From assembly GCA_039802085.1 (NCBI GenBank), contig JBDRVU010000003.1, forward strand, positions 1 through 35,314: a stretch of 35,314 nt of DNA. The letters are read 5' to 3'. This DNA is from a candidate division WOR-3 bacterium (GTDB taxonomy: Bacteria > Hydrothermota > Tepidihabitantia > Tepidihabitantales > JBDRVQ01). Each line of letters begins with the position of its first letter. Position 1 is the stretch's first letter. Shown piece after piece: positions 2,364 to 35,245 of the stretch. Position numbers and translations under genes: made by a program. The notes below the pieces were generated by a model. That model worked only from the letters and a program-made list of their open reading frames with translations. It searched no databases and had not been told where the DNA came from.

Positions 2364-2381
2364 AAGCAAAAATCGTGCCAA
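2364..2381 (-). promoter_or_regulatory. Sigma54 -24/-12 promoter internal to the cluster, driving the Kelch gene
   Basis: Minus strand TTGGCACGATTTTTGCTT: GG(2379-2378)-N10-GC(2367-2366), directly after the kinase stop at 2383. Predicted +1 near 2354. Confidence 0.85.
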
Positions 2382-7899: not shown

Positions 7900-8735
7900 A
7901 TAGTAATAATATCTATCAGCCAATCCCAATGCGCATTGTCCGGCGCTATAACCTAACCGAAGATGTCCGATTTTTTCAAGTGCGACCAGTGGAGATGGAA
8001 AAGGCATTGACCTTGCGTTATAAACCAGGACAATTTATGATGGTCTCGGTCTTCGGGGCGGGAGAAGCACCTTTTTCTATCTCTTCTTCCCCCTCTCGTC
8101 CCGGACTCTTAGAGTTCGGTATCCGAAAGATTGGGGTTTTAACGACAGAGTTATTCAAATTGAAGGAAAACGAAGTGATCGGAGTTCGGGGACCTTACGG
8201 TAACGGTTTTCCCGTAGAGAAGATGATTGGTCATGACCTAATCATTGTCGTTGGTGGTTTAGGGGCAGTTCCTTTACGTTCCCTTTTACTCTATGTCTTA
8301 GACAATCGGGATTTGTTCGGTAAGATTTATTTCCTTTATGGCGCCCGTCAACCAAAAGAGATGCTCTTTTTAAGGGAGTTTTTGGAGTTAAAAGAGAGAG
8401 AAGACCTGGACTGTCTATTGGCAGTTGATAAAGATGATACCGGAACTTGGACGGAAAAGATTGGAGTTGTTACTGAACTATTTAAGTTTATAAAAGAAAT
8501 TGACCCAGAAAAGAGTTACGCCGCGGTCTGCGGCCCACCGGTGATGTATCGCTATGTGATTGATAAATTGGTCGCTCTAAAAATACCTAAACATCAGATT
8601 CTAATGACCCTGGAAAGAAGAATGAAATGCGGGGTGGGCAAATGCGGACACTGCGTTATTGGCTCAATCTATACCTGTTTAGATGGTCCAGTCTTTACCT
8701 ATTGGGATGTTTTACATATGAAGGATTTAATATGA
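7896..8735 (+). CDS. hydG: Sulfhydrogenase gamma subunit (FAD/NAD(P)-binding, 2Fe-2S)
   Basis: PGQF, RGPYGNGF, GGLGAVP, CGPPVM, ERRMKCGVGKCGHC...CLDGPVF. Confidence 0.9.
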   Translation: MNSNNIYQPIPMRIVRRYNLTEDVRFFQVRPVEMEKALTLRYKPGQFMMVSVFGAGEAPFSISSSPSRPGLLEFGIRKIGVLTTELFKLKENEVIGVRGPYGNGFPVEKMIGHDLIIVVGGLGAVPLRSLLLYVLDNRDLFGKIYFLYGARQPKEMLFLREFLELKEREDLDCLLAVDKDDTGTWTEKIGVVTELFKFIKEIDPEKSYAAVCGPPVMYRYVIDKLVALKIPKHQILMTLERRMKCGVGKCGHCVIGSIYTCLDGPVFTYWDVLHMKDLI

Positions 8736-9496
8736 AGCCTAAAGTCGGTTTCTTTGAATTTACCGGTTGTGCCGGAGACCTTTTGACTATAGTCCATTCT
8801 GAGGATTATCTCTTAGATGTTTTGAAAGCGGTTGAGGTGGTAAGTTTCCGCCTCGCCTCTAGCCAAATCCGAAAGGGGAATAACGGCTTAATGGATCTCG
8901 TTTTCATTGAAGGTTCTATTACTACAACCGAGCAGGAAGAGAAGTTAAAAGAGTTGCGCAAGCGAAGCAAGATTTTAGTTGCCTTAGGTACCTGTGCCAC
9001 TTTTGGCGGTGTGCAGGCGATGTATACCGGAAAGCCGAACTTCTCCAAAAGATTCCGTTCGGTTTATAATAAAAATTTTAAGATTGTGGAAGCCTTTGAA
9101 TCAAAACCCTTAGAGGCTTTTGTGCCGGTGGACTATTTCATCCCCGGTTGTCCAATCTCTCCGCAGTTATTCTTATTCAATTTCCCTCGTCTCTTAAAAA
9201 ATCTGCCCGTTGAGTTACCTGCCTATCCGGTTTGTGTGGAATGTAAATGGCAGGAAAATGAGTGTCTCCTCTTAAAAGACATCCCCTGTCTTGGTCCGGC
9301 AACGCGCGCTGGCTGTTTAGCAAGATGCCCAAAGGATAATCTTCCCTGCGTTGGTTGTTTCGGTCCCGTTCCTGGCGGAAATTTTGCCTCCTGGGAAAAG
9401 CATCTATTGGAAAAGAAGTATCATGAGCCCCAGTTGGACAAAAAAATGAGATTTTTCTTTGGTGCCAAAATTAAAGAGGTGAAAAGAGGAAAATGA
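8732..9496 (+). CDS. hydD: NiFe hydrogenase group 3b small (delta) subunit
   Basis: EGSI, ALGTCATFGG, VDYFIPGCP, VCVEC...CLGPATRAGC..RCP...CVGCFGP. Start ATG 8732 overlaps the gamma stop. Confidence 0.88.
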   Translation: MKPKVGFFEFTGCAGDLLTIVHSEDYLLDVLKAVEVVSFRLASSQIRKGNNGLMDLVFIEGSITTTEQEEKLKELRKRSKILVALGTCATFGGVQAMYTGKPNFSKRFRSVYNKNFKIVEAFESKPLEAFVPVDYFIPGCPISPQLFLFNFPRLLKNLPVELPAYPVCVECKWQENECLLLKDIPCLGPATRAGCLARCPKDNLPCVGCFGPVPGGNFASWEKHLLEKKYHEPQLDKKMRFFFGAKIKEVKRGK

Positions 9497-10782
9497 GAGA
9501 AGGAAAGGAGATAAGAATTGATAGTGTAGCCCGGGTTGAAGGGCACGGCAATATCTATGTCCGGCTTTTAAAAGGGAAGGTGAAGGAAGTGCGTTTTGAA
9601 ATCCCGGAAGGACCTCGTTTATTTGAAACTTTGGTTTTGGGAAAAGAACCGTCGGAGGTATTAAATATCGTACCCCGGATTTGTGCCATCTGTAACATCT
9701 CCCACCGCTACGCGGCGATTAGAGCCTTAGAAAAGATTTTGGCGGTGAAGGTCCCTCCTGAAGTCACTTTCTTGCGAAATCTGATGCATTACGGGGAGAT
9801 GATTGAAAGTCACAGTCTCCACATCTTCTTCCTCGCCCTTCCGGATTTTTTGGGCTATCCGGATGCGATTGCCTTAGCGGAAAAGTATCCGGAAGAGGTA
9901 GGCATCGGACTCCGCTTGAAGAAATTTGGTAATTATGTGATGGAAACAGTTGCCGGAAGAATGATGCACGGCGAGAACCCAACCATTGGTGGTTTTGGTC
10001 GTTTCTTAAATAAGGAAGAGATAAAATCGATAAGAGACGGAGCGGAAAAACTCCTACCTGATGCGATAAGAACCACCGAACTTTTACGCAACCTTCATTA
10101 CTCAACCTATGCCGAAGAAGGAATGCTCTTCGTGTGCTTAAAACCAACAACAGATGAGTACGGCTTTTGGGGCGATACGGTGATGATTTCTAACGGGGAC
10201 GACCGAACCGTGGAAGAATTCCGAACTGCCATCAAAGAGCGGATTTATCCCCATTCCACCGCTAAAAGGACCCTCTATCGGGAAAGACCTTACCTGGTGG
10301 GTGCCCTTGCCCGAATGAATCTCTTAGGAGAGAGGTTGCACGGTGCCGCTCACGAGGCCCTTCAAAAATGCTACAGCCTGAGTTGGATTAGAAACCCATT
10401 GTATAATAACTTGGCTCAGGCGATTGAAATCGTTTTTACCTTAGAGGAGATTATTAAGACCACCGAGAGAATTTTGAAAATTAAAAAACCTCCAAGTATT
10501 GTACACAGCAAAAAAGGCGAGGGGAAAGGGGCCGGGGCGGTAGAAGCGCCTCGGGGTAGTCTCTTCCATTATTACGAGTTTAAGGACGGGTTATGCACTT
10601 ATGCGGATTTAATTATCCCCACCGCCCAAAATTATAATGCCATAGAAAAACACCTGACGGTGGCAGCGGAGAATTTATTCTTTTCTTCGGTAGAAGAAGA
10701 AAAGGCAAAGTTGGAATTGGAGATGATTGTGCGGGCCTACGACCCTTGTATCTCTTGCTCCTGCCATATCCAACAAATCTAA
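9493..10782 (+). CDS. hydA: NiFe hydrogenase group 3b large (alpha) subunit
   Basis: RVEGHG, L1 motif RICAIC, EAPRGSLFH, L2 motif RAYDPCISCSCH followed by a short IQQI tail. Confidence 0.92.
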   Translation: MREGKEIRIDSVARVEGHGNIYVRLLKGKVKEVRFEIPEGPRLFETLVLGKEPSEVLNIVPRICAICNISHRYAAIRALEKILAVKVPPEVTFLRNLMHYGEMIESHSLHIFFLALPDFLGYPDAIALAEKYPEEVGIGLRLKKFGNYVMETVAGRMMHGENPTIGGFGRFLNKEEIKSIRDGAEKLLPDAIRTTELLRNLHYSTYAEEGMLFVCLKPTTDEYGFWGDTVMISNGDDRTVEEFRTAIKERIYPHSTAKRTLYRERPYLVGALARMNLLGERLHGAAHEALQKCYSLSWIRNPLYNNLAQAIEIVFTLEEIIKTTERILKIKKPPSIVHSKKGEGKGAGAVEAPRGSLFHYYEFKDGLCTYADLIIPTAQNYNAIEKHLTVAAENLFFSSVEEEKAKLELEMIVRAYDPCISCSCHIQQI

Positions 10783-11849: not shown

Positions 11850-13031
11850 ATGTTAATAAATCTATCCGTAGGGAAAAGAGTTATCCCATTACTAATTTTT
11901 TCCCTCCTGGTGGATGGGGAAGGGGCTGCAATTAGCCCAAGGATTAACAATTTTGGTCTTGCGCTTTTCTCGGAATTATTAGCCGGGGAGAGCAATAAGA
12001 ATATTCTCATCTCACCACCTAGTATTGCTATCGCCTTAATAATGACCTATAACGGTGCGGAAGGGGAAACAAAGCAGGCGATGGCTAAAACCTTAGGTTT
12101 AGAAGGAATTGCCTTGGCGCAATTAAACCAAGAGATGAAGAAAATCCACCAGAGATTAAAAAGCCGAGATGAGAAAATAAAAATAGAAGTTGCCAACTCC
12201 TTATGGGCAAGAAAAGGTATTTCTTTCCGTCAGGATTTTCTAAAAAGAAATAAAGAGTTCTTTTCCGCTGAGATAAAAAGTTTGGATTTTTCTCAAGCTG
12301 CGATAAAAGAAATTAACCGCTGGGTCGAGAAAAAAACCAAAGGCAAGATAAGAGAGATTATAGAAAAGATAGAAGGGAATGCGGTTCTCTTCTTGATCAA
12401 TGCTATTTACTTCAAAGGGAAGTGGCAAAAGGAATTTGCTAAGAATAAAACAAAAGAGGATATCTTCTTCGGCCCAAAAGGACCAGAAAAGGTCTTTATG
12501 ATGAACCAATCCGGGAGATTCCCCTATCTGAAAAAGGAAATCTGCCAGGCAGTTTCTCTGCCTTATGGAAAGGGGGATATTAGTATCTATCTTTTTTTGC
12601 CGGATACAAACAGAACTATCTCTGAGCTTGTTCAGTGGTTGAAGGGGGAAAAGTGGGAAGACCTTATGGGTGAGTTTAGAGAGATGGAAGGGGATATTTC
12701 TTTGCCCCGTTTTCAGATGGAGTATGAGAAGTCATTAAAGGATGTTCTAAAAGAGATGGATATGGCAATCGCCTTCGACCCGTATAAGGCGGATTTCACT
12801 GGGATGCGTAAGGAGGGAGAATTATTCATTAATGATGTTCGGCATAAGACTTTTATCAAAGTAGACGAGGAAGGGACCGAAGCGGCTGGGGCAACATCCG
12901 TAGAAATCGCCTTGACCGCTGTCCCTGATAGGTTTAGTATCGTTTTCAATCGTCCCTTTTTCTTCGCCTTGCAAGATAATAGGACGGGTCTTTTGCTTTT
13001 TACCGGGATAGTTTCTGAGCCAAATGAGTAA
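11850..13031 (+). CDS. Serpin (serine protease inhibitor, I4 family)
   Basis: NILISPPSI, INAIYFKGKW, LPRF, hinge VDEEGTEAAGAT, FNRPFFF signature. Confidence 0.95.
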   Translation: MLINLSVGKRVIPLLIFSLLVDGEGAAISPRINNFGLALFSELLAGESNKNILISPPSIAIALIMTYNGAEGETKQAMAKTLGLEGIALAQLNQEMKKIHQRLKSRDEKIKIEVANSLWARKGISFRQDFLKRNKEFFSAEIKSLDFSQAAIKEINRWVEKKTKGKIREIIEKIEGNAVLFLINAIYFKGKWQKEFAKNKTKEDIFFGPKGPEKVFMMNQSGRFPYLKKEICQAVSLPYGKGDISIYLFLPDTNRTISELVQWLKGEKWEDLMGEFREMEGDISLPRFQMEYEKSLKDVLKEMDMAIAFDPYKADFTGMRKEGELFINDVRHKTFIKVDEEGTEAAGATSVEIALTAVPDRFSIVFNRPFFFALQDNRTGLLLFTGIVSEPNE

Positions 13032-18490: not shown

Positions 18491-19768
18491 GTGAAAAAAG
18501 GCAAACGGCTTTGCTTTGGGTATCATTTTGTTAGCGTGCTCTTTCTCATTTTCTTTTTTATTCTTAACGGATGCCAAAAGCCGGCGCCCAAGGTAAAAAG
18601 GCTTTCGGTTAAAGAAAGGAATTTAAGAGAAGAATGGTCCTCCGGGGAATTTCTCTTTATAAGGGAACTACCACTAAATCTTTATCTTTCCCCGGTGACC
18701 ATTTTGGCTGGCGATTTCTTAGCCAAAGGTGGCAAGGAATTATTGCTCTACGCGGCTTCCCTTCCCAATCTCTATATCCTATCGCCCGGCCTATCTCTCC
18801 TGGAGAAGTTATCGGTCTTCTCTTTCCCGCCTAAAGTATTTTTCCATAACGGAAAAGATATTCTTTATCTGAGTGATGGTAAGGCGATCTTCTTTTTCGG
18901 AAAGAGCCCGAGAGGAAAATTGTCGCGCCTCGCCACTATCCGATTGGGAGATAATAGTTGGTTAAAAGATTTTCTGATCACAGGCAGCGAAGGGAATTTA
19001 ATGCTCTGGACGATAGAAGAGAGGGAAAAAGGTTGCTTCCTTACTTCTTGGACTTTCCCGGATGGCGGATTAAGGTCTGAGGAAAAATTAGAACAAGACC
19101 AACCAACTTTATTACTAACAGGAAGTTCCTCCGGTACCGTTTTCCTTTTAAATGGCGACCGAATAGTTGCCCGGGGGAGGAATAATTGGGAAAGTTCAGT
19201 GGATGGCTTACGGCAGCCGCTTCGCACCGCTTTCTCTGCTGATGGCCGAACTTTCTTTGGTCTTTTTCAGGGGGAAAACAAGAGTCGACTCTACGCCTGG
19301 CGGGTAGCAACCGGCGAGGAGATAAGTCCGAAAATTACTATTCCTCTCTTTAATACCGGTTCGTTCGTTAATGATTTTTACCTGAACGATTTTGATGGTG
19401 ATGGGCAAGAAGAGATCCTCCTTACCTATTCTGGTAAGGAAGGGAGAATAATCATCCTGAAAGAAGGGAAGATAGTAAGTCAAAAAACCTTCCTTCCGCA
19501 CTTTTTCTATTCCCGCATCGTCATCTATCCTCTGGGGGTTTTGAAGACCGAAACCGGAATGGAGATTATAGCAAGTATCCGTTGGGAAGGGGGAAAAACT
19601 CATCCGCAAAGTGGCGAGCTGACGAGTGAAAATTACCTCTATCGTTTATCGCCCCAATTGAAGGTGAAGGAGATTGTTGATTTGGAAGATGTGATTTTAG
19701 CCTGCGCATTTCTGCCCAAGGGACTTTTGCTAGTGGGTGAAAGTTTTACGCTTTACCGATGGGAATAA
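18491..19768 (+). CDS. Putative lipoprotein, beta-propeller with FG-GAP-like motif
   Basis: GTG start at 18491, hydrophobic stretch and lipobox LNG-C; DFDGDGQEEILL motif. Confidence 0.6.
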   Translation: MKKGKRLCFGYHFVSVLFLIFFFILNGCQKPAPKVKRLSVKERNLREEWSSGEFLFIRELPLNLYLSPVTILAGDFLAKGGKELLLYAASLPNLYILSPGLSLLEKLSVFSFPPKVFFHNGKDILYLSDGKAIFFFGKSPRGKLSRLATIRLGDNSWLKDFLITGSEGNLMLWTIEEREKGCFLTSWTFPDGGLRSEEKLEQDQPTLLLTGSSSGTVFLLNGDRIVARGRNNWESSVDGLRQPLRTAFSADGRTFFGLFQGENKSRLYAWRVATGEEISPKITIPLFNTGSFVNDFYLNDFDGDGQEEILLTYSGKEGRIIILKEGKIVSQKTFLPHFFYSRIVIYPLGVLKTETGMEIIASIRWEGGKTHPQSGELTSENYLYRLSPQLKVKEIVDLEDVILACAFLPKGLLLVGESFTLYRWE

Positions 19769-21600
19769 AGCAGAACACGATTTTTCAGAACTCAAAAAAG
19801 AAGGTACTCATTTTGATTTTGGGTTTTGGAACTTTATTCTCGCAATTTTTACCCGTCGGTTCCTTTCTTCTCCCCCAGAAGAATTTTTATCATTTTTTCT
19901 TTCTTAATCTCATCCCGGATAAACCGAAAGAGGTTATCCTTCTTGCTGAAGGAGAAATGGTGATTACCGACCTATCTGGGAAAATCATTGGTCAATACCT
20001 TTTCCCCAAAAAAGTTCTTATCGCTTATCCCTGTTCCACCGTGGCTTATTTAGTAACCGAGGAAGGGCTCTATCGTCTCAGTTTTTTAAATCTGGTCCCA
20101 AAATTGGAGATGATAGAAAGAGAAGAAGTCTTTGCTTCCTTCCCAATTTCCCCTTTTCAGTTCGCGATTCGGACCAAAGAGAAGACAATGGTCTATAATC
20201 TCGCCGAAGGTAGTATTAAAGAACTCTTCTCTCTTCCTTTAAGGGAAGTTAATAGCGGTTGTCGGAGAAGAGAGAAATTCTATCTGGCAGAAAGCGCCGC
20301 GCTTTACGAATTTGACCAGGTAAGCGGGGAATTAAAAAGAATCCTAACCAGTCAAGAAAAAATTCATAGTATCTTTAACCTGGAAGGCATCCTCTACTAT
20401 CTAAAAAGGAGGGGAATGGATTTATACTTGGTAAGATACGAGCCGGACAAAAAGATTCCGGTTAAAAGCATACCGATTGTTGGCCAAAAGGGAAAGACGT
20501 TGATAAGAGAGATCCCCCCTTTTTGCTTCTTAAAAAACAAAGATGATTTATATTTAATCTTCCCTTCGGGATTTAAGAAAAAGATAAGCCAAAGATTGGT
20601 AGATTTAGCCCGGGCGGACTTGAATGGTGATGGCTTAACAGATTGCGCCCTTCTCCTACCGAACCGGGTGGAGATTTTTCTTAATCAGCGTCGGGATTTA
20701 TTAACAAAAAGGGAGAGGGAGGTTGAACATTTTTCTTTGTTAACCCAAAAGGAAGAATGGCGGGAGGCAGAAAGGGCATTTTTAATGGCAAATATCTTTA
20801 ATGACCAGGCGATGGGCGAAGAAACTTCCCTCCGGAAATTGAGAAGAGATACCTATCTCGCCTATTATATCAAAAGATGGACCAAAATCTCCTCTACCCT
20901 TCTCCTGCCTGTCCTACTAATTATTTTTGCTATTTTTCTCCTCCGCCAAACCATTCATAAGAGACGGAGTTTGGCTAAAAGAGAGGTAAGAGAGATTGTC
21001 AATATCGCCTACGAGATAATTACTTTAGACCACAATTTTGTGGTGAAAGGCAATTTGCCTTCCGCCCTCAGGAAGTTGAAGGAGTTATTCAGCCGCTACC
21101 GAATACCCAAAGAGAGATTTTTACCCGATATCTGGGACGAGAAGAATTATAAGGAATTTCTGGCTCACTTTCTCTCTTCCCCTCATCTTCACTCCCTCCG
21201 GAGATTTTTGGAAGAGAGGGTTTTAGAAATCGGCCAATCCTGGGATTGTGTAAAGATCAGCCCAGAGGCGGAAGATGTCCTCTGTTATTTTGATAAGACG
21301 ATGGAGGCGGTCTTTACTCATATCTTCTATGATAATTTTCGCTATGCCCGTACCTTCGCCCAAATTAAGGTCTCTTATCTGGTGCCAACGGAGTGGTCAA
21401 AGAAAGTGAAAATATCCTTTTTCTCCGATGGCGAGGCGATTCCTAATTTAAGAGAAGGTCATTTGGCAGAGGATTTACGCTCTCTCACCTTCCACTACGG
21501 TAATTACATCGCCTACGGCGAGGGGATTGAGAGAGATGAGAAGTTATGGGTAACATTTTTGGATATTGTGGGAATAATTAAAGGGATAATGAAGAGATGA
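19759..21600 (+). CDS. Membrane sensor: extracytoplasmic beta-rich/FG-GAP region, TM helix, degenerate histidine-kinase-like cytoplasmic tail
   Basis: ADLNGDGLTD; TM TLLLPVLLIIFAIFLL; LDHNFVVKGNL (H-box-like); MEAVFTHIFYDNFRYA (N-box-like); FFSDGEAIP (G1-like). Overlaps the start of the receiver-bEBP gene (ATGA). Confidence 0.55.
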   Translation: MGIKQNTIFQNSKKKVLILILGFGTLFSQFLPVGSFLLPQKNFYHFFFLNLIPDKPKEVILLAEGEMVITDLSGKIIGQYLFPKKVLIAYPCSTVAYLVTEEGLYRLSFLNLVPKLEMIEREEVFASFPISPFQFAIRTKEKTMVYNLAEGSIKELFSLPLREVNSGCRRREKFYLAESAALYEFDQVSGELKRILTSQEKIHSIFNLEGILYYLKRRGMDLYLVRYEPDKKIPVKSIPIVGQKGKTLIREIPPFCFLKNKDDLYLIFPSGFKKKISQRLVDLARADLNGDGLTDCALLLPNRVEIFLNQRRDLLTKREREVEHFSLLTQKEEWREAERAFLMANIFNDQAMGEETSLRKLRRDTYLAYYIKRWTKISSTLLLPVLLIIFAIFLLRQTIHKRRSLAKREVREIVNIAYEIITLDHNFVVKGNLPSALRKLKELFSRYRIPKERFLPDIWDEKNYKEFLAHFLSSPHLHSLRRFLEERVLEIGQSWDCVKISPEAEDVLCYFDKTMEAVFTHIFYDNFRYARTFAQIKVSYLVPTEWSKKVKISFFSDGEAIPNLREGHLAEDLRSLTFHYGNYIAYGEGIERDEKLWVTFLDIVGIIKGIMKR

Positions 21601-23159
21601 AACCTTATATCTTAATTTGTGATGATTTAAGAGAAAGTTATATTACCTTAATAGAAAGGATTCGGGATTATGAGGGTGGAAGACTTCTTTCAGAATTTGA
21701 ATTTGTCCACTTCCGAAACGGTAAAGAGATGGTTGATTGGTATAAGAAAAATAAGGGAAAGTTTGTCTCCCTTATTGTTCAGGATATTGATTTCACCCAT
21801 CTTGAGGATGAGGAACTAATCACGCCGCGCGATTTGCATATGGAACTTATTGGTCCCCACGACGTGAAGGCATTACAGGGTTTTTTGATTTTCGTTGGTC
21901 TCCGGCAAATTGATAAAATTGCCCCAGTCTTATTTCTTTCTTTGCGGGTTGGTACTTCTTCCCTGAAGGAATTTTCCAACCTCCTGGTTAGCCCTGGTTA
22001 TGGTCGGGCAACTTTTGTTCCGAGTAATGCGGTGGGTGAAAACTTTTATCCTTCGGTTGTCAAAAAGATTGATTTCTTTGCCCTCCGTCCGGTCCCCGAG
22101 GAGAAAAAACAAAAATGGCAAGAGGATTTCGATTTTGTCATCGGCGACGCCCGGCTGATGAGTTATCTCGTTTGTGAGATTGAAAAGATCGCTCCTTCGG
22201 ATGCTACGGTAATGTTATTAGGAGAACCGGGGGTGGGCAAAGAGTTAGTTGCCCGAATTATCCATCACCTTTCCCTCCGCTTTGACCAAGAAAAGTTAGA
22301 GAAACGAGAGCCTCTAACCGTCAATATTGCCGCCTTAGATTATAACCTAATTGAAGATGAACTCTTTGGCCATGAAAGGGGTGCCTTCACGGGGGCTATC
22401 TTGCCACGGGAAGGAATATTTGAATCGGCGAATAACTCAACCGTCTTTTTGGATGAAATTGGCGAACTATCCTCCGAAATTCAGATTAAACTATTAAGGG
22501 CATTGGAGTACAAAAGGATAAAACGACTGGGTGCCTCTTGGGAGAAAGAGGTTGACATCCGAATTATCGCTGCCACCAATCAGCCATTAGAAAAACTTTC
22601 CTCAACTTTGAGACCAGACTTCTATTCCCGACTTTTCCAACACTGTCTTCTCGTTCCTTCCTTAAAAGAACGATGGTATAATGAGACGCCGGCCGTAATT
22701 GAAAGGGATATTGCTACCTTTGCTGATTTCTTCATCAAAAAGATTTCCGCCACTATGCGGACGAAGAAAGCAATTCCCCTTTCCCAATCGGGTAAGAATT
22801 TTCTTTTTACATTAATTAATGATTACCTCCGGGGAGAGAACTCTTTATTTGAAGGGAATGTCCGGACCCTCCGGAATGTGATTGAGCGGGCATACGAAAG
22901 AGCCTTCGCCGAAGCCGCCAAGGAGATTGACATTGACCACCTCATTCCGACTTTAGGGATGATGCGCTTCGTCCAGAAGAAAGAAGAGAAGGAAGGGGAT
23001 TTAGAAAAAAGTTTTGGTACCTTAAATCTTGAGCTCTTAGAAAAAAAGGCGATTAAAGAGGCACTCGCTAGGACCAATGGTCATATCGGTCGAGCGGCTG
23101 AACTCTTGGGAATTCACCGTGAGACCTTAAGGAAAAAGATTATAGAATATAACTTTTAA
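21597..23159 (+). CDS. Sigma54-dependent activator with atypical N-terminal receiver domain (NtrC-like)
   Basis: ILICDD, LIVQDID and VLFLS receiver elements; [34 protein letters not shown]; C-terminal [23 protein letters not shown]. Confidence 0.88.
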
Positions 23160-23175: not shown

Positions 23176-24663
23176 TTATTCCCAGGTATCGATCTGTGCT
23201 TTCTGCAAAGAACCGGAGTAGTCAATATAGACGGTTTTTAGTTCGGAGAATATCTCATAGACTGTCCAGCCACCTTCCCGGTGACCATTGCCGGTATCCT
23301 TCACCCCGCCAAAGGGCAGGTGGCATTCCGCACCAATTGTTGGCGCATTGACATAAGTAATTCCCGCTTCAATCTCTGAGATTGCCTTAAATGCCTTATT
23401 CACATCCCGGGTATAGATGGAAGAAGAGAGACCATATCTTGTGCTATTTAAGACGGAAATCGCCTCTGCTAAATCCCGAACCTTAATTACCGAGAGGACC
23501 GGACCAAATATTTCTTCTTGGGCGATTCGCATCTCCGGTTTCACATCAATAAAGATTGTTGGTTCATAAAAATAGCCCTTGGCGCATTCCCCTTCGGTAT
23601 AAGGCTTGCCACCCAAAAGGAGTTTTGCCCCTTCTTTTTTCCCAATCTCCACATAATTATGGACTTGGTTTCTCTGGGTTTCGTTAATTAAAGGACCAAC
23701 GTCGGTATCTTCCTTTAAGCCATTACCCAATTTTAATTTCTTTGTCCTCTCTACTAACATTTCGATAAATTGGTCATGGATTTTTTCTTCCAGTATGAGT
23801 CGGGAGGTAGCGGTGCATCTCTGACCCGTAGTGCCAAAGGCACCCCAGAGTACACCCTCTAAGGCTAAATTCAGGTCCGCATCGGCAAGAACAATCTGAC
23901 CATTCTTCCCGCCTAACTCTAAGGAACAACGTTTTAAGGTTCGGCCGCAGACTTCGGCGATTCTCTTCCCAACCGCCGAAGAACCGGTGAAAGAAATCCC
24001 GGCGACATCCGGATGACTAAGCAAAGCTTCTCCAACTTCGCCACCGCGGCCAAAGACTAAGTTGACGACGCCCTCAGGAATTCCGGCTTCCAATAGAATC
24101 TCAACAAAGAGAAAGGCGGTGGCTGGGGTATCGGTTGCCGGTTTGAAGACAACCGTATTGCCACATAATAAAGCGGGGAATATTTTCCAAGAAGGAATTG
24201 CCAAGGGAAAATTCCAAGGGGTAATAATTCCCCAGACGCCAATCGGTTGACGATAAACGAAGCAAGTTTTATTGGGTAATTCACTGGGGGTGGTAAAAGA
24301 GAATAACCTTCTTCCTTCACCAGCCGCATAAAATGCGGTGTCAATCCCTTCTTGGACATCGCCCCTTGTTTCTTTTAAGACCTTTCCCATCTCCCGGGTC
24401 ATAATCTGAGCAACCTCTTCTTTTTTCTTAAGCATTATCTCACCCGCTTGGCGCAAGATTTCTCCCCTTTTTGGCGCTGGGACCTTTCGCCAGTGTTCGT
24501 ATGCCTTCTTAGCCGCCTGCACCGCTAATTCAACATCTTCTTTACCGGAGGAAGGAAAGATACCAATCACCTCTTCGTAGTTGGCGGGATTGCGGTTTTC
24601 ATAAGTCTTTTTTGTTTTACTTTCCACCCATTTCCCATTAATAAAATTATGATAGTCTCTCAT
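23176..24663 (-). CDS. NAD(P)-dependent aldehyde dehydrogenase
   Basis: ITPWNFP, FTGS, catalytic ELGGKN and GQRCTA, EEIFGP, PFGG. Confidence 0.95.
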   Translation of the reverse strand: MRDYHNFINGKWVESKTKKTYENRNPANYEEVIGIFPSSGKEDVELAVQAAKKAYEHWRKVPAPKRGEILRQAGEIMLKKKEEVAQIMTREMGKVLKETRGDVQEGIDTAFYAAGEGRRLFSFTTPSELPNKTCFVYRQPIGVWGIITPWNFPLAIPSWKIFPALLCGNTVVFKPATDTPATAFLFVEILLEAGIPEGVVNLVFGRGGEVGEALLSHPDVAGISFTGSSAVGKRIAEVCGRTLKRCSLELGGKNGQIVLADADLNLALEGVLWGAFGTTGQRCTATSRLILEEKIHDQFIEMLVERTKKLKLGNGLKEDTDVGPLINETQRNQVHNYVEIGKKEGAKLLLGGKPYTEGECAKGYFYEPTIFIDVKPEMRIAQEEIFGPVLSVIKVRDLAEAISVLNSTRYGLSSSIYTRDVNKAFKAISEIEAGITYVNAPTIGAECHLPFGGVKDTGNGHREGGWTVYEIFSELKTVYIDYSGSLQKAQIDTWE

Positions 24664-24711: not shown

Positions 24712-24729
24712 AAGCAAAAATCGTGCCAA
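24712..24729 (-). promoter_or_regulatory. Sigma54 -24/-12 promoter upstream of ALDH
   Basis: TTGGCACGATTTTTGCTT: GG(24727-24726)-N10-GC(24715-24714). Identical over 19 nt to the promoter at 2364-2382. Confidence 0.85.
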
Positions 24730-25052
24730 AATGAAAAATTTAGAAAAATTGAGCAAAAAATTCACTGAGACATTTTAGGGGGTATTTCCGTTTTTATTAG
24801 ATAGGGCTATGAAGAGGTTAAAAAGGATGGTTAGAAAAATTATTAAGGATTTTGCCTTTTTGGGTGTTATAAATAAAAAGGGGTCATTAAATAATTGGGT
24901 TTTAATCCCATACTTTTTTATATTGTCAGAAGAGAGATTAAGGAGGTGTTATCGGGTAAGTAGTTTTTAACCAAAGACGGAGTTAAATCATAGGACTTTT
25001 ATTAAACAGGAGGGGATTCCCTTTATAAAAAGTGGTGAAGCATACAGGGGAT

Positions 25053-25381: not shown

Positions 25382-27844
25382 TTACTTGATGACGATATTT
25401 AGGAGTTTATCTTTTATGTAGATTATTCTCCTTATCTCTTTGCCCGCAGTATAATTCTTCACTTTACTATCTTCTAAGGCTAATTTCTTAATCTCCTCTT
25501 CGGCTGTTCCTAAAGGAACCATAATTTTAGAACGGAGTTTGCCATTGATTTGAATTGGAATCTCAATCTCCGGGAATTTTGTTGCCGATGGGTCATAACT
25601 GGGAAAAGAAACAGAAGAGATAAACTCCTCACCTTTTGCCCTCTCCCATAACTCCTCTGCCAGATGGGGGGCAAAGGGGGAAAGGAGGATAAGGAAGTTA
25701 TAGAGGGAGAATTGAAAAATTTCACTCTCTTTTTCGGAAAAGGCATATAGGTCATTTAAGAATTCCATCAAGGCAGCGATGGCGGTATTGAATTGGAATC
25801 GTTCATTATCTTCCCTCACCTTCTTAATTGTTTGATTCAAACGGATGTAAAGTTCTTTTCCTTGAGGAGAAAGTCTTTCTTTTTTTATACTCGATTTTAT
25901 TTGGTAATTATTCTCTTCAAAAAGGCGATAAATTCGGTTTAAGAAACGTTTCGCTCCGGTGATTAACTCATCCTTCCAATCTAAATCTTTTTCCGGTGGG
26001 GCGGCAAAGAGAATGGCTAAGCGGGCAACATCGGCACCATGCTCTTCTAAGAAAGGGCCAACCCAAACACCATGCCGACGAGAGGAAGACATCACCTTCC
26101 CATTTAGCATTACCATCCCCTGGGTGAAGAGGGAAAGACAAGGCTCATCGTAGGCACAAAGACCTAAGTCATAAAGAAACTTGGTGAAGAAGCGGAAGAA
26201 GATTAAGTGACCACAGGCATGTTCAATCCCTCCAATATATTTGTCAATCGGTAGCCATTCCTTGGTCGCCTCGTAGGTGAAGGGCAATTTTTCATTTCTG
26301 GGGTCTAAATATCTTAAAAAATACCAGGAGGAATCAACAAAGGTATCCATTGTGTCTGGATCGCGTTTCGCCTTACCCCGGCACTTTGGGCAGGTGGTGT
26401 TGATAAACTCTTCCACCCCGGCTAAAACAGATTTTCCTTTCGGTAGATAGTCTTGAACATCTTCGGGGAGCCTGACCGGTAAATCTACTTCGGGCACGGG
26501 CACAATCCCACACCGCTCACAATGAATCATGGGGATTGGGGTTCCCCAATACCTCTGCCTAGAGATGAGCCAATCCCGCAGTCGGTAATTTACCTTTCGC
26601 CGGGCCAAGCCTTTTTCCACTAAATAATCGGTTATTAACTTAATCCCTTCTGGGGAAGGTTTATTGGAAAACGGACCGGAGTTTATCATAATCCCTTCCT
26701 CGGTATATGCCTCGGCCATCTCTTTTTCTTTCAAATCGCAACCAGGAGGTCTAATTACTACTCGGATGGGCAAGTTGTATTTTTTGGCGAACTCAAAATC
26801 TCTTTGGTCATGAGCGGGAACCGCCATTATGCAACCAGTGCCATAAGAACCCAGGACATAATCGGCGATAAAGATTGGTACTTTCTCCCCGTTTAATGGA
26901 TTTTTACAATATCTCCCGATAAAGATGCCTTCTTTCTCTTGCCCAATTGCTTGTCTTTCGATCTCGGACTTCTTTAATATCCGGTCAATAAACTTCCTTA
27001 TTTTCTCTTCTTCTTCTGTTCCGCGGATAAGTTCCTCGGTAATTTCCACATCCGGGGCGATAGCCATAAAGGTAACGCCGTAAAGGGTATCGGGTCGGGT
27101 GGTGAAGATATTTAGAGAATAATTAGTCCCTAAGACCGGAAATGAGACCTCAATTCCTTCACTTCGCCCAATCCAATTCCTCTGCATTATCTTCACATTT
27201 TCCGGCCAACCTTCTAAACGGTCAATCCCTTCCCAAAGTCTTTCCGCATAGGCGGTAATCTTAAAGAACCATTGTTCTAATTTTCTCTTCTCGACAATGG
27301 CGTTACAGGTTCCCCGATAGCACCTTCCGTCAACAACCTGTTCGTTGGCTAAGACCGTTTGACAACCCGGACACCAGTTAACCCATCCACCTTTTCGATA
27401 GGCTAATCCTCTCTCATAGAATTTCAGGAAGAAGTATTGATTCCATTTATAATAGTTTGGGTCAAAGGACCATATCTCTTTTTCCCAATCGTAACTTATT
27501 CCTAAGCGGATTAGATGTTCTTTGGAGATTCTTATATTTTCCTTGGTCCAAGCCTCAGGATGAACCTTATGGATAATCGCCGCGTTCTCCGCGGGTAAAC
27601 CAAAGGCATCCCAGCCGAAAGGATGAAGGACATCTTTACCTTCCTGGCGTTTGGTCCGAGCGACGACATCGCCGATCACATAGTTTTTAATATGACCCAT
27701 ATGCAAATCGCCCGAAGGGTAGGCGTACATCACTAAACAATAATACTTATTTTTTGGGTGGGAAGGGGTTAAAAAGACCTCGCGTTCTTTCCATTTCTTC
27801 TGCCATTTCTTTTCTAAGCTATTAAAATCATAATCTAACTTCAT
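25382..27844 (-). CDS. leuS: Leucine--tRNA ligase
   Basis: YPSGDLHMGH, GWDAFGLPAENAA, FTTRPDT editing domain, RDWLISRQRYWG, DTFVDSSWY, C-terminal QINGKLR. Confidence 0.97.
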   Translation of the reverse strand: MKLDYDFNSLEKKWQKKWKEREVFLTPSHPKNKYYCLVMYAYPSGDLHMGHIKNYVIGDVVARTKRQEGKDVLHPFGWDAFGLPAENAAIIHKVHPEAWTKENIRISKEHLIRLGISYDWEKEIWSFDPNYYKWNQYFFLKFYERGLAYRKGGWVNWCPGCQTVLANEQVVDGRCYRGTCNAIVEKRKLEQWFFKITAYAERLWEGIDRLEGWPENVKIMQRNWIGRSEGIEVSFPVLGTNYSLNIFTTRPDTLYGVTFMAIAPDVEITEELIRGTEEEEKIRKFIDRILKKSEIERQAIGQEKEGIFIGRYCKNPLNGEKVPIFIADYVLGSYGTGCIMAVPAHDQRDFEFAKKYNLPIRVVIRPPGCDLKEKEMAEAYTEEGIMINSGPFSNKPSPEGIKLITDYLVEKGLARRKVNYRLRDWLISRQRYWGTPIPMIHCERCGIVPVPEVDLPVRLPEDVQDYLPKGKSVLAGVEEFINTTCPKCRGKAKRDPDTMDTFVDSSWYFLRYLDPRNEKLPFTYEATKEWLPIDKYIGGIEHACGHLIFFRFFTKFLYDLGLCAYDEPCLSLFTQGMVMLNGKVMSSSRRHGVWVGPFLEEHGADVARLAILFAAPPEKDLDWKDELITGAKRFLNRIYRLFEENNYQIKSSIKKERLSPQGKELYIRLNQTIKKVREDNERFQFNTAIAALMEFLNDLYAFSEKESEIFQFSLYNFLILLSPFAPHLAEELWERAKGEEFISSVSFPSYDPSATKFPEIEIPIQINGKLRSKIMVPLGTAEEEIKKLALEDSKVKNYTAGKEIRRIIYIKDKLLNIVIK

Positions 27845-27854
27845 AAGTTAGTTG

Positions 27855-27882
27855 ATTATAAGGAAAAAAGAGAAAAAGTAAA
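27855..27882 (-). promoter_or_regulatory. Sigma70 promoter of leuS, very short or no leader
   Basis: TTTACT-16 nt-TATAAT, 10 nt to ATG 27844; no SD. Confidence 0.55.
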
Positions 27883-27884
27883 GA

Positions 27885-27921
27885 TGCCAAAAAAAATGGC
27901 AATTTTCCAAAAAATTTGGCA
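27885..27921. promoter_or_regulatory. Tandem palindromic bEBP enhancer sites
   Basis: TGCCA-N7-TGGCA (27885-27901) and TTCCA-N7-TGGCA (27905-27921), 20 bp apart, centred about -127 and -107 from the predicted +1 at 28020. Confidence 0.65.
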
Positions 27922-27993
27922 AAGAATTAAAAGGGAGGCATACCTTTCTAAATAAGACTTCAATTTTCAATGCCTTAGCATCGTTTAATAAAT

Positions 27994-28009
27994 CGGCACA
28001 CTTTTTGCT
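27994..28009 (+). promoter_or_regulatory. Sigma54 -24/-12 promoter
   Basis: CGGCACACTTTTTGCT: GG(27995-27996)-N10-GC(28007-28008); predicted +1 at 28020. Confidence 0.8.
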
Positions 28010-28019
28010 ATGTTTTGCG

Positions 28020-28120
28020 TGATTGCTATCTGCTATCTATTATGCCGCCGACCGCTGTGGCGGAAAAAAGAATAATAAAATTGAGGCGGAGAAGAAGTTA
28101 TAGATAGCAGATGGCAATTA
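28020..28120 (+). ncRNA. Candidate structured sigma54-dependent RNA (sRNA or 5' leader), 101 nt
   Basis: 28020-28040 pairs with 28100-28120 for 21 continuous bp, including two G-U pairs valid only on the + strand; internal CCGCC/CCGC versus two GGCGG elements. Confidence 0.6.
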
Positions 28121-28128
28121 ATTTAGAA

Positions 28129-28971
28129 ATGACATTAAAAAGAAAAATCTTATTAATTATTCTAATTACTCTCTTCATCCTTTTTGCCTTTACTCTCTTC
28201 CCTTTTCTTTATTTAGAAAAATATTACCCCCAAAAAGAGAATCGGTCTTTATTCAAAAGCGCAGAACGATTCAAGTCTTTGCTCAAAAAGAAAGATGGTA
28301 AGGGCATCTATGCTCTTTTTAACCAAACCTTCCAAAAGGAAATATCGGAGGAGAGGTTTCTTACTGCCTTCAATCAATGGCTAAAAGGGAAGAAGGTGAA
28401 AAAAGTTGAGACTAAGTTTATCAATGTTACGGGTTTCACTGGTCAAGTCTCCACTTGGCTCTGGGGTGATGAGAAAGATTACCAGTATCTCTTTAGTAGT
28501 TGGATTAAAACCAAAAAAGGCTGGTATCTCCTTTGGCTTTCTCCCATTTTAAATCAAGATTTTGAATATGGAGTTGGAGAATTAAAAGAGCGAAGGGAAT
28601 TATTGCGCTTGGCGACAGAAAAGGCGCTCGGCGCTGATGGCTTTGAAGAGATATTTCCAGAATTTGACTTACCCCATTCCCTTGTCTTTCTAAAAAAGGG
28701 ACGGTTGGAAGAGAGGGTAAAATCTTCTCGGCCGGTTCTCTGGCTCACCTTAGAGGAAATAAAGGAGAAAGCTAAATATCTCTCGCTTCCCTTCTATTTT
28801 GATTTTGGGGCGATTCGGATAATTGATAATCTCGCTACGGTCTATTTAGATATAATACCCATCAAAGGGGAAGGTAATCAAAATTTCCGGCATACCCGCG
28901 GTCTTCAATTTCAATTCCGGCGCAAAGAAGATGGGAGTTGGGAATTTGTTGGTTATGGTTCAAGATGGTAG
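28129..28971 (+). CDS. Membrane-anchored hypothetical protein (DUF3887/NTF2-like N-terminal region)
   Basis: Basic N-terminus plus TM helix (KRKILLIILITLFILFAFTLF), then GIYALFNQTFQKEISEERF. An alternative start at 28111 lies inside the hairpin. Confidence 0.6.
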   Translation: MTLKRKILLIILITLFILFAFTLFPFLYLEKYYPQKENRSLFKSAERFKSLLKKKDGKGIYALFNQTFQKEISEERFLTAFNQWLKGKKVKKVETKFINVTGFTGQVSTWLWGDEKDYQYLFSSWIKTKKGWYLLWLSPILNQDFEYGVGELKERRELLRLATEKALGADGFEEIFPEFDLPHSLVFLKKGRLEERVKSSRPVLWLTLEEIKEKAKYLSLPFYFDFGAIRIIDNLATVYLDIIPIKGEGNQNFRHTRGLQFQFRRKEDGSWEFVGYGSRW

Positions 28972-32632: not shown

Positions 32633-33922
32633 ATGATTTCCATAACAAAAGAATATAGCCAAGCGATTATTCATAAACTTGGTTCCTCTGGCACTCCCCC
32701 AGAATTTGGCTTAGAGTTTTTTACGATTGGTCTGGATAGATACCTAAAGGTAATTGAAGAAGAGTATCTTCAGGCACTTCTCAAATACCGCCTCTCTTCT
32801 TTTAAGATTGTCACCGGCAATTACGGAGGCGGAAAAACCCACTTTCTCTATCTGGTGCGCAATCTCGCCTTCAAGAATAATTATGTCTGTTCTTATGTTG
32901 CCCTCTCCCCGGTGGAGTGTCCATTTGATAAATTGGAGTTGGTCTATCGGCAGGTGGTTTTAAACTTGATGCCACCGTTTAAGGATGAAGACTTATTGAA
33001 GCCCAACCCAAAAGGGATTGATTTTTTTATTAAGAATTGGTACTATGAGTTTAAGAATCGATTAGAAAAGACTGATTCTCCCCTGGTGGTGAGTGAGTAT
33101 TTAAAGAGCCTTCCGACAACGGAAAGTAGTAGTTTTGCCAACGCGGTCAAAGCAGCTTTTTTATCCTGCGCTACTGATGATGAGGAAGGTTATTCGGTTT
33201 TGATTCAATATCTGAAAGGGGAGGAGATTCCTCGGGAAATTAAGATGCGCTACCGGATCTCAGAAAGAGTGGAAAAGACCAATGCCTTCCGGATGATGCG
33301 GAGTCTTGCCCAGTGGATAGTAGCAATTGGTTATTCCGGTCTCATTTTGCTTTTTGACGAAGCGGAAAGGGGAATTTCCATATCATCCTCCAAGGATAAA
33401 AGGAGAGCATTAGATAATTTAAGACAGATTATTGATGAGTGCGGCAATGCTCGCCTTCCCGGGGTGATGGTCTTTTACGCTGTCCCCAACGAAGATTCGC
33501 TTTTAGATGGGACAGGTGGTGTTTATGAGGCACTAAAACAGCGTCTCAGGAGTTCTTTCACCAAAACCAATCCCTCCGGGGCAAAGATAAATTTGGAGGA
33601 TTTGGATGTCCCCCCAGAATTATTCCTCACCGAATTGGGAAAGAAATTGGCGCAAATTTTTTCTCTCGCTTATACTTTTTCCTTTCCCCCGGCGGTCTTT
33701 GAGCCCACTCTCAACCTTTTAGTCAAAACCTGTCTCACCTCCTATCTTTTTGATGTCAGTTATCGTCGGCTTTTTATATTAGCCTTAATTGAAGCCCTCT
33801 ATCAGTTAAGAGAAAACCCCAAAGTGCCTCTTAGTGAGAAGAAGATTCGGGAGATTTTGAAGGTTCGACAGGAGGAATTAGTGAAGGAAGAAAAAGAGAA
33901 AGTAGAAAAGGAGGAGTTTTGA
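32633..33922 (+). CDS. DUF2791/BrxD-like P-loop ATPase (copy 1)
   Basis: GTPPEFGLEFFTIG, Walker A GNYGGGKTH, PFDKLELVYR, Walker B GLILLFDE, YEALKQRL. Confidence 0.8.
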   Translation: MISITKEYSQAIIHKLGSSGTPPEFGLEFFTIGLDRYLKVIEEEYLQALLKYRLSSFKIVTGNYGGGKTHFLYLVRNLAFKNNYVCSYVALSPVECPFDKLELVYRQVVLNLMPPFKDEDLLKPNPKGIDFFIKNWYYEFKNRLEKTDSPLVVSEYLKSLPTTESSSFANAVKAAFLSCATDDEEGYSVLIQYLKGEEIPREIKMRYRISERVEKTNAFRMMRSLAQWIVAIGYSGLILLFDEAERGISISSSKDKRRALDNLRQIIDECGNARLPGVMVFYAVPNEDSLLDGTGGVYEALKQRLRSSFTKTNPSGAKINLEDLDVPPELFLTELGKKLAQIFSLAYTFSFPPAVFEPTLNLLVKTCLTSYLFDVSYRRLFILALIEALYQLRENPKVPLSEKKIREILKVRQEELVKEEKEKVEKEEF

Positions 33923-33928
33923 TTTAAT

Positions 33929-35245
33929 ATGCTAAATCGCGGATTAATCTGCTCCCATCCTGTTTTCGGAGAAGGAGAAATCTTAGAGGAACGTTTCCGC
34001 GGGCAAGAATTTTTGGTCAAATTTCGGACAGGTATTAAACTTTGGTTGAGAAAGGAGAGACTTTTCTTTTTTAGCCCGTTAAGAGAAGAAAAAATTGACC
34101 AAATCTCCGCCCGGCGGATGATAGAAGCCTTCCGGCTGGGGATTGTCCCGAGGCGGGATATTGAAGATTTCACCTTCGGTCGGGAAGAAGAAATCTCTCA
34201 ATTCAAAAAGGAGATGGAAGGATTGAAAAGGGGTTACGGCGATTGTCTCTTGATTGAGGGGCAATACGGGTCAGGGAAAACCCACCTTTTAGAATATTTT
34301 TACCATACCGGATTAAAAGAGGGTTTTTTGGTGAGCCGGGTGGAACTTGACCCGCGGGAGGTCTCTCTGGCCCGGCCCAAGAAGGTCTATCGGGAAATTA
34401 TCCATAACATCCGTTTCCTGCAAGAGGAAAAAGAGGGAGGCTTCCGTGATTTTCTCCGGCAGGCGGCGAAACTAAATATCAAAGACCATATCTATTTTAC
34501 ACCACTTCTCTCCTCTCTAAAAAAAATGGATGAAGATGCCGCATCCGCGGAGGTCTGGTGGCAATGGGTGGAAGGGGAGTCAACAAAGGAGTACGCGGTG
34601 GAACATAGATTTTATCGGGTAAAAGGCGGGAATAAAATCCCGGCTCTCTATGACTTTTCCACCGCTGTTGATTTTTACTGTTACCTCATTTCTGGTATTT
34701 CTTACATGGCTCGGGAATTGGGATTTTTTGGTTTTATTCTTTTAATTGATGAAGCGGAGACCGTCACGCATTTTTGGGATATGCATTCTTTTCTTGCTGG
34801 TTTCTCCTTTCTGGAGGGATTACTTAAAACCAGTCTCAATTTTCCGGAGTTAAAGAGAATAAATTATCAATATCTCCATAATGGGATGCGACCAACGCCC
34901 TATATCTATAAAGATGCTTACCTTCTCCTAATAATCGCCGCCACCCCTCTTCCCGATGGCTACCTCCAAACGAAAATCCGGCAGATTGTCAAAAAGAATA
35001 TTTCCCTTTCTCCTTTACCGGAACGTGCTTGCCAGGAATGTTTCTATCATTTAGTTTCCCTCTACCGTGCTGCCTATCCGGAATTTTCTTTGCCACCTCG
35101 AAAAGAGCGGGAGATTTTGTTATCCGCCATCGCTTCGGAAAATCTCCGTGATTTTATTAAGTTTACAGTTGATTATTTAGATATCGAACGGCACGCCGTC
35201 ACTTGTAGGCATAACCTAAAGCACCGACCATCGTTATCGCTTTAA
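33929..35245 (+). CDS. DUF2791/BrxD-like P-loop ATPase (copy 2) with N-terminal Tudor-like extension
   Basis: IEAFRLGIVP...FGREEEI, Walker A GQYGSGKTH, Walker B ILLIDE; N-terminus HPVFGEGEI...VKFRTGIK. Confidence 0.8.
   Translation: MLNRGLICSHPVFGEGEILEERFRGQEFLVKFRTGIKLWLRKERLFFFSPLREEKIDQISARRMIEAFRLGIVPRRDIEDFTFGREEEISQFKKEMEGLKRGYGDCLLIEGQYGSGKTHLLEYFYHTGLKEGFLVSRVELDPREVSLARPKKVYREIIHNIRFLQEEKEGGFRDFLRQAAKLNIKDHIYFTPLLSSLKKMDEDAASAEVWWQWVEGESTKEYAVEHRFYRVKGGNKIPALYDFSTAVDFYCYLISGISYMARELGFFGFILLIDEAETVTHFWDMHSFLAGFSFLEGLLKTSLNFPELKRINYQYLHNGMRPTPYIYKDAYLLLIIAATPLPDGYLQTKIRQIVKKNISLSPLPERACQECFYHLVSLYRAAYPEFSLPPRKEREILLSAIASENLRDFIKFTVDYLDIERHAVTCRHNLKHRPSLSL

Follow-up and report, generated by a model that had tools for sequence, protein, structure and literature searches.

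Comparison of related sequences indicates that a hairpin in the window, by which we mean the whole 35,314-nt stretch of candidate division WOR-3 DNA analyzed here, is a structured RNA read from the + strand. It appears to be a new RNA family, well supported structurally and found in an unusual position, directly upstream of the gene for a membrane-anchored protein, P0001. Our best reading, which we put forward tentatively and with a little less than an even chance, is that the hairpin is a co-transcribed 5' RNA module of the message of this NTF2-like gene, and that it is possibly released as a stable RNA. The genome that contains the window is G000, and it is compared below with three other genomes of its family (G001, G002, and G003) and with two metagenome contigs (L027 and L028). 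The hairpin, its parts, and the gene that follows it are given here by window position.

28020-28120, + strand: the hairpin as first described, with a 21-bp stem of 28020-28040 paired with 28100-28120
28025-28115, + strand: the conserved RNA core, which matches our model R2 with 87.6 bits
28025-28040 / 28100-28115, + strand: P1, the conserved closing helix
28045-28049 / 28085-28089, + strand: P2, CCGCC paired with GGCGG
28052-28055 / 28060-28063, + strand: P3, CCGC paired with the GGCGG at 28059-28063
28064-28084 and 28090-28099, + strand: purine- and A-rich joiners within the core
28116-28128, + strand: A/U-rich linker of the AAUUAAU type, from P1 to the likely start codon; also found in G001 and L027
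28129-28971, + strand: P0001 gene, whose membrane-anchored product has two NTF2-like domains; an alternative in-frame ATG at 28111 lies in the stem

The stem in G000 departs from a perfect inverted repeat only at two + strand G-U pairs (28021/28119 and 28027/28113), and a repeat search returned arms at 28022-28040 and 28100-28118 that are 19 nt long and 95% complementary. Folded as the + strand, the hairpin reaches -41.2 kcal/mol (z -6.96), a stability equaled by none of 200 shuffles, so the folding check proposed in an earlier note, which had picked out this hairpin from the letters of the DNA alone, came out in its favor. The - strand folds to -33.5 kcal/mol, with the two G-U positions mismatched or unpaired. 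The minimum free energy structure places the CCGCC, CCGC, and GGCGG segments as nested helices, P2 and P3.

Six distinct versions of the hairpin were available for comparison, from G000, G001, G002, G003, L027, and L028; a further locus, L029, is a copy of the G003 sequence. Upstream DNA was inspected for 20 of the P0001 homologues, L027 and L028 were found via the protein, and a metagenome scan yielded four loci (L027-L030), of which L030 is of the tRNA-Asp type described below. The relatives' hairpins are approximately 95-105 nt long and follow the same plan, with a P1 of 14-21 bp, a P2 of 5 bp, and a P3 of 4-5 bp. When the sequences are folded individually, the long P1 forms in all six, and P2 forms together with P3, which lies right after the 5' arm of P2, in five of them. 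In the six-row alignment, A7, 94.1% of the cells are paired, and 7 of the 23 pairs carry two-sided compensatory changes compared to a shuffle mean of 2.6 (standard deviation 1.1); none of 500 shuffles reaches 7, in a statistic that the relatedness of these sequences inflates. Sliding the partners by 1-3 columns causes pairing to fall to 31-55%, and RNAalifold, supplied with no structure, arrives at P1 and P2 again, in a set of 19 pairs that includes 5 compensatory ones. Thus, the conservation and covariation that the earlier note had proposed to look for in relatives are present.

The same alignment bears on an alternative pairing that had been suggested for the inner segments, in which CCGCC and CCGC exchange partners between the two GGCGG copies. 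Such an exchange is possible in G000, and to that extent the suggestion stands; however, it is not kept in L027, and no fold favors it. L027 alters P2 and P3 differently, with a compensatory C-G to U-A change in P2 and two compensatory pairs in P3, and this covariation backs the nested form.

All four wobble cells in A7 read U-G on the + strand and none reads A-C, and model R2 (six sequences) scores 72.7-87.6 bits on the + strand versus approximately 30 bits on the - strand. Since the wobbles are all U-G on the + strand and the model scores far higher there, we assign the RNA to that strand. The earlier note had argued from the two G-U pairs of G000 that selection acts on RNA rather than on DNA symmetry, and the one-sided wobbles, the covariation, and the + strand model score together agree with it.

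The hairpin is restricted to one family among the genomes searched. Model R2 gives one + strand match in each of the four family genomes and none in 147 other genomes sampled from the phylum; in the order sample, it gives a single weak match (G020, E 0.066) among 37 other genomes. BLAST returned one match in G000, so the hairpin is single-copy there, and with one copy per family genome the many genome-wide copies expected of a dispersed repeat or mobile element are absent. A weak R2 match on contig C26 of G000 (23.6 bits) was rejected as a second copy; it sits within a coding frame. Model R1 was set aside as too narrow, since its search of the order failed to return G002 and G003. A DNA-pattern scan of the genome contigs for further copies returned the G003 contig only, and otherwise one chance hit in a GC-rich coding frame, and a search of the genome contigs with P0001 as a single protein returned no related loci.

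The earlier note's view that this is an undescribed RNA, and not a signal recognition particle (SRP) RNA, 6S RNA, tRNA, or known riboswitch, agrees with the identity searches. Scanning 28020-28120 on the + strand with cmscan and Rfam 15 yielded no family at E values up to 10. The only row that overlaps the hairpin is on the - strand, with 12.4 bits compared to a gathering score of 208 bits, and the rows within 27400-28700 at E values up to 10 were rejected as eukaryotic or chance matches far under their gathering scores. At gathering scores, the Rfam scan found nothing in the window and, over the five related loci, only a tRNA-Ala in L027, with nothing over the hairpin; ARAGORN reported the window free of tRNA genes. 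Among the curated small RNA families, Qrr and GlmY/GlmZ included, no covariance model matched. An SRP or 6S RNA identity was rejected because the canonical genes sit elsewhere, that for SRP RNA in G001 and G002 and that for 6S RNA in G000, G001, and G003. The features looked for in a riboswitch were likewise lacking: no Rfam class matches, P1 has 14-21 bp, there is no terminator, and the alternative pairing is unconserved. Small frames that run across the hairpin in G002, G003, and L028 differ in frame and share no peptide similarity beyond the conserved nucleotides, and on this ground a coding reading was rejected by eye. The RNA may have been described before under another name, our literature searches having been narrow; the one on sigma54- or RpoN-dependent small RNAs returned a single work, in two records.

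At all six loci the hairpin lies 5' of the P0001 homologue and on the same strand, while the left-hand neighbor varies. P0001 homologues are present in 38 of the 41 genomes sampled from the order, and outside the family of G000 the place of the hairpin belongs to a tRNA gene: of the non-family loci for which sequence is available upstream, all 15 have tRNA-Asp(GTC) directly 5' of the homologue and in the same orientation (a sixteenth, cut by a contig end, was excluded from the count), and metagenome locus L030 has a tRNA-Asp there as well. The distance from the tRNA end to the first in-frame start is 3-8 nt at nine of the 15 loci and 13-33 nt at the other six, and a sigma70-type promoter can be read by eye ahead of tRNA-Asp at the sister-family loci. 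The short distance at nine loci implies that the sister families (loci L006-L021 and L030) probably make a tRNA-mRNA co-transcript that yields a near-leaderless message. The tRNA-Asp gene of G000 itself is on contig C9, ahead of a folC-like gene.

A displaced tRNA gene could also be taken as the trace of a DNA-level event, in which case the hairpin would be a protein-binding inverted repeat, a recombination site, or a mobile remnant at a tRNA gene, with no RNA function. P1 is indeed a long inverted repeat that is conserved in sequence, the tRNA-Asp gene of this locus now lies on another contig, and tRNA genes are common integration sites. However, a DNA element would not account for wobbles that are U-G on one strand without exception and never A-C, for compensatory changes in the inner helices, or for a + strand model score far above that of the - strand, and the element is single-copy per genome with no adjacent integrase or transposase open reading frame (ORF). 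We therefore regard a DNA-level element as very improbable.

Upstream of the hairpin in G000 lie the following features.

27885-27901, no strand assigned: palindrome 1, TGCCA-N7-TGGCA, approximately 109 bp 5' of the sigma54 promoter; a putative site for a bacterial enhancer-binding protein (bEBP)
27905-27921, no strand assigned: palindrome 2, TTCCA-N7-TGGCA, 20 bp past palindrome 1 and 89 bp 5' of the promoter
27952-27974, no strand assigned: AT-rich block of the ATAAG..TTSA type, between the palindromes and the promoter; relatives have similar blocks
27994-28009, + strand: sigma54-type promoter, CGGCAC-N5-TTGCT, with the -24 GG at 27995-27996 and the -12 GC at 28007-28008, a 10-nt spacing

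The coordinates that the earlier note gave for the palindromes, the stem of 21 bp with its two G-U pairs, and the GG-N10-GC promoter all proved correct. Chance does not explain the promoter: the window holds four copies of GGCAC-N5-TTGCW compared to 0.03 expected, and two of the others lie just 5' of a gene start and on the strand of that gene. In the 0.89-Mb G000 genome, the strict form occurs at 11 sites, whose consensus, TGGCACGATTTTTGCT, is tight and is matched by the promoter at 27994-28009. No sigma70-type promoter or terminator was predicted on the + strand between 27900 and 28130. The machinery for such a promoter is encoded in G000: rpoN is identified by a Sigma54_DBD match on contig C15 (160 bits), and three proteins match Sigma54_activat with 168-238 bits, two of them encoded within the window; an extra Sigma54_activat match, in an 811-aa frame, scores 28.9 bits compared to a cut-off of 20.2 bits. 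The earlier note's picture of a sigma54 promoter with paired upstream palindromes thus has counterparts in relatives as well as an rpoN gene and three bEBP genes in the same genome, and we infer that the hairpin unit is probably transcribed in a sigma54-dependent manner. The count of palindromes is weak evidence alone, since three occur in the window at one mismatch or fewer compared to 0.38 expected and two of 100 shuffles also reach three; the weight lies in their tandem arrangement, in their spacing, and in their being conserved both in relatives and at a second locus. The AT-rich block is possibly a bending site of the IHF type; the copy here fits the IHF consensus imperfectly. Of the two bEBP genes in the window, the second (21597-23159) encodes an N-terminal stretch of 180 residues that matches no Pfam family and is preceded by a gene for a 613-aa protein, also without a family (region 19759-23159); the two could form a sensor/activator pair.

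The earlier note had also proposed that the predicted +1 coincides with the base at which the stem begins. This holds for G000 alone: the outer 5 bp of the stem (28020-28024 / 28116-28120) are found in no other version, and the conserved P1 begins at 28025. In the other versions, P1 starts 2-3 nt (the genome of the same genus), approximately 20 nt (L027), or 95-115 nt (three loci) past the predicted +1.

The six loci fall into two layouts. In layout A (G000, G001, and L027), P1 is preceded at 10-30 nt by a consensus sigma54 promoter, tandem TGCCA-N7-TGGCA sites lie approximately 90-110 bp above the promoter, and the likely AUG lies 8-10 nt past P1, across the conserved A/U-rich linker; the tandem palindromes are thus present 5' of the hairpins of G001 and L027 as well. 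In layout B (G002, G003, and L028), the palindrome-like sites are of the TGCCG type. A terminator after the hairpin was found neither in G000 (27900-28130, + strand) nor in L028 or G002; G003 has one weak terminator pattern, which overlaps the 3' arm of P1.

The second locus is on contig C2 of G000, where two palindromes at 34304 and 34325 (span 34304-34341), with the tandem spacing of 20-21 bp also seen at the hairpin, precede a consensus sigma54 promoter at 34412 by 108 and 87 bp. The predicted transcript is a small RNA of approximately 85 nt that ends at a canonical intrinsic terminator (34493-34520), beyond which the genes lie on the opposite strand. This unit (34304-34520, loci L045/L046) carries an AT-rich block too. 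Its promoter, palindromes, and small RNA core are kept in G001 (contig C29) and G002 (contig C47), and G002 has TGCCG-type variant palindromes at both its C2-type locus and its hairpin locus. The C2 small RNA has no Rfam match. Because the C2 unit has the same palindromes and a sigma54 promoter, it is the strongest, if indirect, support for the palindromes being functional activator sites, and the hairpin unit appears to belong to a small bEBP regulon that it shares with the C2 small RNA. Base pairing of the C2 small RNA with the hairpin or start region was considered and rejected, with fractions of 0.905 (G000), 0.735 (G001), and 0.415 (G002) of shuffles (n = 200) giving duplex energies at least as good.

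Given this sister transcript, the hairpin could itself be a free-standing regulatory or protein-binding small RNA that acts in trans within the same bEBP/sigma54 regulon, its link to the P0001 gene being no more than inherited gene order. GlnZ and NrsZ are named as RpoN-dependent small RNAs in a passage of PMC9731577, so that a sigma54-dependent product of this kind would have precedent. The C2 small RNA with its matching upstream architecture, the conservation of the helices and of a single-stranded AAnU motif in sequence as well as in pairing, and the three loci that have an independent sigma70 promoter 3' of the hairpin are all consistent with an RNA of this kind. However, at the loci scanned no intrinsic terminator follows the hairpin, whereas the C2 small RNA has a canonical one; the junction between hairpin and gene is kept at all six loci while the left neighbor changes; and Hfq and CsrA were not found in the four family genomes. 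We consider a free-standing small RNA possible, though on the unlikely side.

The reading that we favor, in which the hairpin is the 5' module of the P0001 message, draws on several of these observations together. Co-transcription of the hairpin with the gene is suggested by a junction that is kept at six of six loci, by the lack of a terminator where the C2 small RNA has one, by the occupation of the tRNA-Asp slot, and by the AUG spacing of layout A; the co-transcription, the processing, and any function of a released RNA are nevertheless deduced from sequence. Sigma54, together with a bEBP bound to the tandem TGCCA-N7-TGGCA sites, would drive the hairpin transcript, and the same bEBP appears to drive the terminator-ended C2 small RNA. 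The + strand transcript would begin with the hairpin and run on into the gene for the membrane-anchored protein with tandem NTF2-like domains. Its first part would be an RNA of approximately 95 nt, in which two short GC helices and purine/A-rich joiners sit within a long closing P1, and which would fill both the slot and the role of tRNA-Asp as a compact, stable, protein-recognized 5' domain. A cut of the RNase E/G type in the A/U-rich linker would then yield a stable small RNA and an mRNA with its AUG at or near the 5' end.

The proposed site of this cut follows from the enzymes encoded. RNase III (PF14622, PF00636) was found in none of the four family genomes, by searches that were positive in eight of 14 control genomes and that may therefore have missed a divergent enzyme; an RNase E/G gene is present in all four. 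Cleavage is placed in the A/U linker rather than in the stem because RNase III was not found and RNase E/G is present, and 28116-28128 is accordingly a putative cleavage region of the RNase E/G type. The four family genomes, of which three are 94-96% complete, gave no match for Hfq (PF17209) or CsrA (PF02599), and the earlier note's thought of a protein-sponge RNA, if of the CsrA type, thus loses its target. P1, P2, and P3 and the single-stranded AAnU motif are kept in sequence too, which argues for a specific protein partner of the hairpin RNA.

Several observations weigh against the hairpin serving as a 5' module of the message, two of them from layout B. There, the sigma54-like sites lie 95-115 nt 5' of P1, and their -12 element reads TGA or TGT rather than TGC; such sites may have little or no activity. 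A conserved sigma70-type promoter, TAGACA-N16/17-TATAAT (11 of 12 matches), stands between the hairpin and the ATG, so the hairpin would seem dispensable for expression of the gene, which points to an independent function. In addition, the sequence conservation of P1, P2, and P3 exceeds what a mere stabilizer or cleavage signal would need. The support for the structure has its own limits: the six sequences come from a single family, with the inflated shuffle statistics already mentioned, and P3 is more thinly supported than the other helices, being absent from the minimum free energy structure of L028 and misaligned by MAFFT in three rows (72.7% paired). The layout B promoter ends 5-8 nt ahead of the ATG, which implies a leaderless message from it. 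Because the layout B gene has this separate promoter, the RNA would be relevant apart from expression of the gene.

We also considered a cis-acting leader, such as a riboswitch or a protein- or temperature-responsive element, that would occlude the start region and control translation or stability. The hairpin always lies directly 5' of the P0001 homologue, the AUG lies 8-10 nt past P1 at three loci, an in-frame AUG falls within the 3' arm of P1 in G000 and G001, and the conserved inner helices and joiners could form a pocket for a ligand or protein. The earlier note had pointed to the ATG at 28111 as the first possible start of the gene, buried in the stem. It is in the 3' arm of P1 and in frame, as described, but it is probably not the start codon, since homology begins at 28129. 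It arises from a U-G wobble in P1 (GAUGGC for GAUAGC; 28111-28131) that G000 and G001 share, and lies 18 nt (G000) and 12 nt (G001) before the likely start; the other four of the six versions have GAUAGC and no AUG in the stem. A leader that switches is also at variance with a very stable P1 of 14-21 bp, unlike the short, switchable P1 of riboswitches, with an alternative pairing that is not kept in L027, with the lack of a terminator/anti-terminator pair at the loci scanned and of a match to a known riboswitch family, and with the three loci where a sigma70 promoter for a leaderless message lies 3' of the element. A cis-acting leader is, in our estimation, quite unlikely.

P0001 matched no family in a Pfam search. 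A model built with 19 homologues (pLDDT 88.4, pTM 0.78) has an N-terminal helix followed by two NTF2-like domains; a fold search with it returned generic NTF2-like matches only, with low TM scores over the whole chain, and the atlas leads, all below 0.9, are also NTF2-like. Several homologues start with a lipoprotein-like signal, as read by eye.

In mitochondrial tRNA punctuation, a structured RNA ahead of a message is excised and a leaderless mRNA is left. A bolder form of our favored reading would be a bacterial counterpart of this scheme, in which a sigma54-induced hairpin that is not a tRNA replaces tRNA-Asp as the excised 5' module, whether by a processing enzyme or by self-cleavage, giving a leaderless mRNA and an active stable small RNA; we judge this counterpart unlikely. 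The two systems resemble one another in that tRNA-Asp in the sister families lies 3-8 nt from the start (nine of 15 loci) and the hairpin 8-10 nt from the AUG (three loci). They differ in that the hairpin is no tRNA according to ARAGORN, that the gene has a promoter of its own at three loci, and that any cleavage here is putative. In a narrow literature search for tRNA punctuation with leaderless mRNA in bacteria, nine of the ten papers listed, out of 12 matches, concern mitochondria, and the one on bacteria, PMC4633059, cites the scheme only among its references.

Small RNAs controlled by sigma54 and a bEBP include Qrr1-5 of Vibrio with LuxO, enterobacterial GlmY/GlmZ with GlrR, and CrcZ of Pseudomonas with CbrB. 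The hairpin unit shares with them a GG-N10-GC promoter, paired upstream activator sites, an AT-rich block in between, and a predicted product of approximately 100 nt, and G000 has a second small RNA, on C2, under the same upstream sites. It differs from them in lacking an Rfam match and a terminator, in being continuous with a protein gene, in a fold that consists of one long closing helix around two short helices, and in occurring where Hfq and CsrA were not found. In the E. coli ompA leader, a 5'-terminal stem-loop protects the mRNA from 5'-end-dependent decay. The predicted +1 of G000 is likewise the first base of a very stable stem, in a family with RNase E/G in four of four genomes; however, the flush 5' end is unconserved, lying 20-115 nt before P1 at four of six loci, and the inner helices would be superfluous for such protection. 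In size, and in a long closing helix formed from the 5' and 3' ends, the hairpin is similar to 4.5S/SRP RNA, 6S RNA, and bacterial Y RNA, yet the canonical genes for 4.5S/SRP RNA and 6S RNA lie elsewhere in the family genomes and the hairpin has no Rfam match.

To our knowledge, sigma54-dependent small RNAs have been described almost only from Proteobacteria. If the proposed regulon is real, one bEBP would control two unrelated RNA families in an uncultured lineage. Searches for Hfq, CsrA, and RNase III in this lineage gave no match, so the two RNAs would have to work differently from textbook small RNAs. The replacement of a tRNA by a hairpin at a fixed spot would amount to a natural experiment on what an upstream RNA contributes to processing, stability, and leaderless translation. 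The element can already serve as a candidate new RNA family, since its boundaries are defined and a seed alignment and a model exist.

Other sigma54 sites in the window stand near genes of different kinds. One at 24713-24727 (- strand) is just 5' of an aldehyde dehydrogenase gene (23176-24663). A repeat of approximately 200 nt that contains a consensus sigma54 promoter occupies 24713-24930 (- strand) and recurs in G000 on contigs C20 (~9380-9610), C38 (~1090-1320), and C39 (~270-500); it lies 5' of at least four genes and resembles either a promoter cassette dispersed through the genome or a regulatory region common to these genes. A site at 512-526 is just 5' of the ORF at 3-500, a gene with a CarboxypepD_reg domain, and another at 2365-2379 (- strand) falls in the last codons of a Ser/Thr kinase gene (2383-3675), ahead of a Kelch-repeat gene (1238-2389). 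The window further contains two adjacent genes that match BREX BrxC/BrxD-type ATPases (32633-35245), a [NiFe]-hydrogenase-type cluster with Fe-S, FAD/NAD, small, and large subunits (6868-10782), and a bacterial serpin gene (11850-13031).

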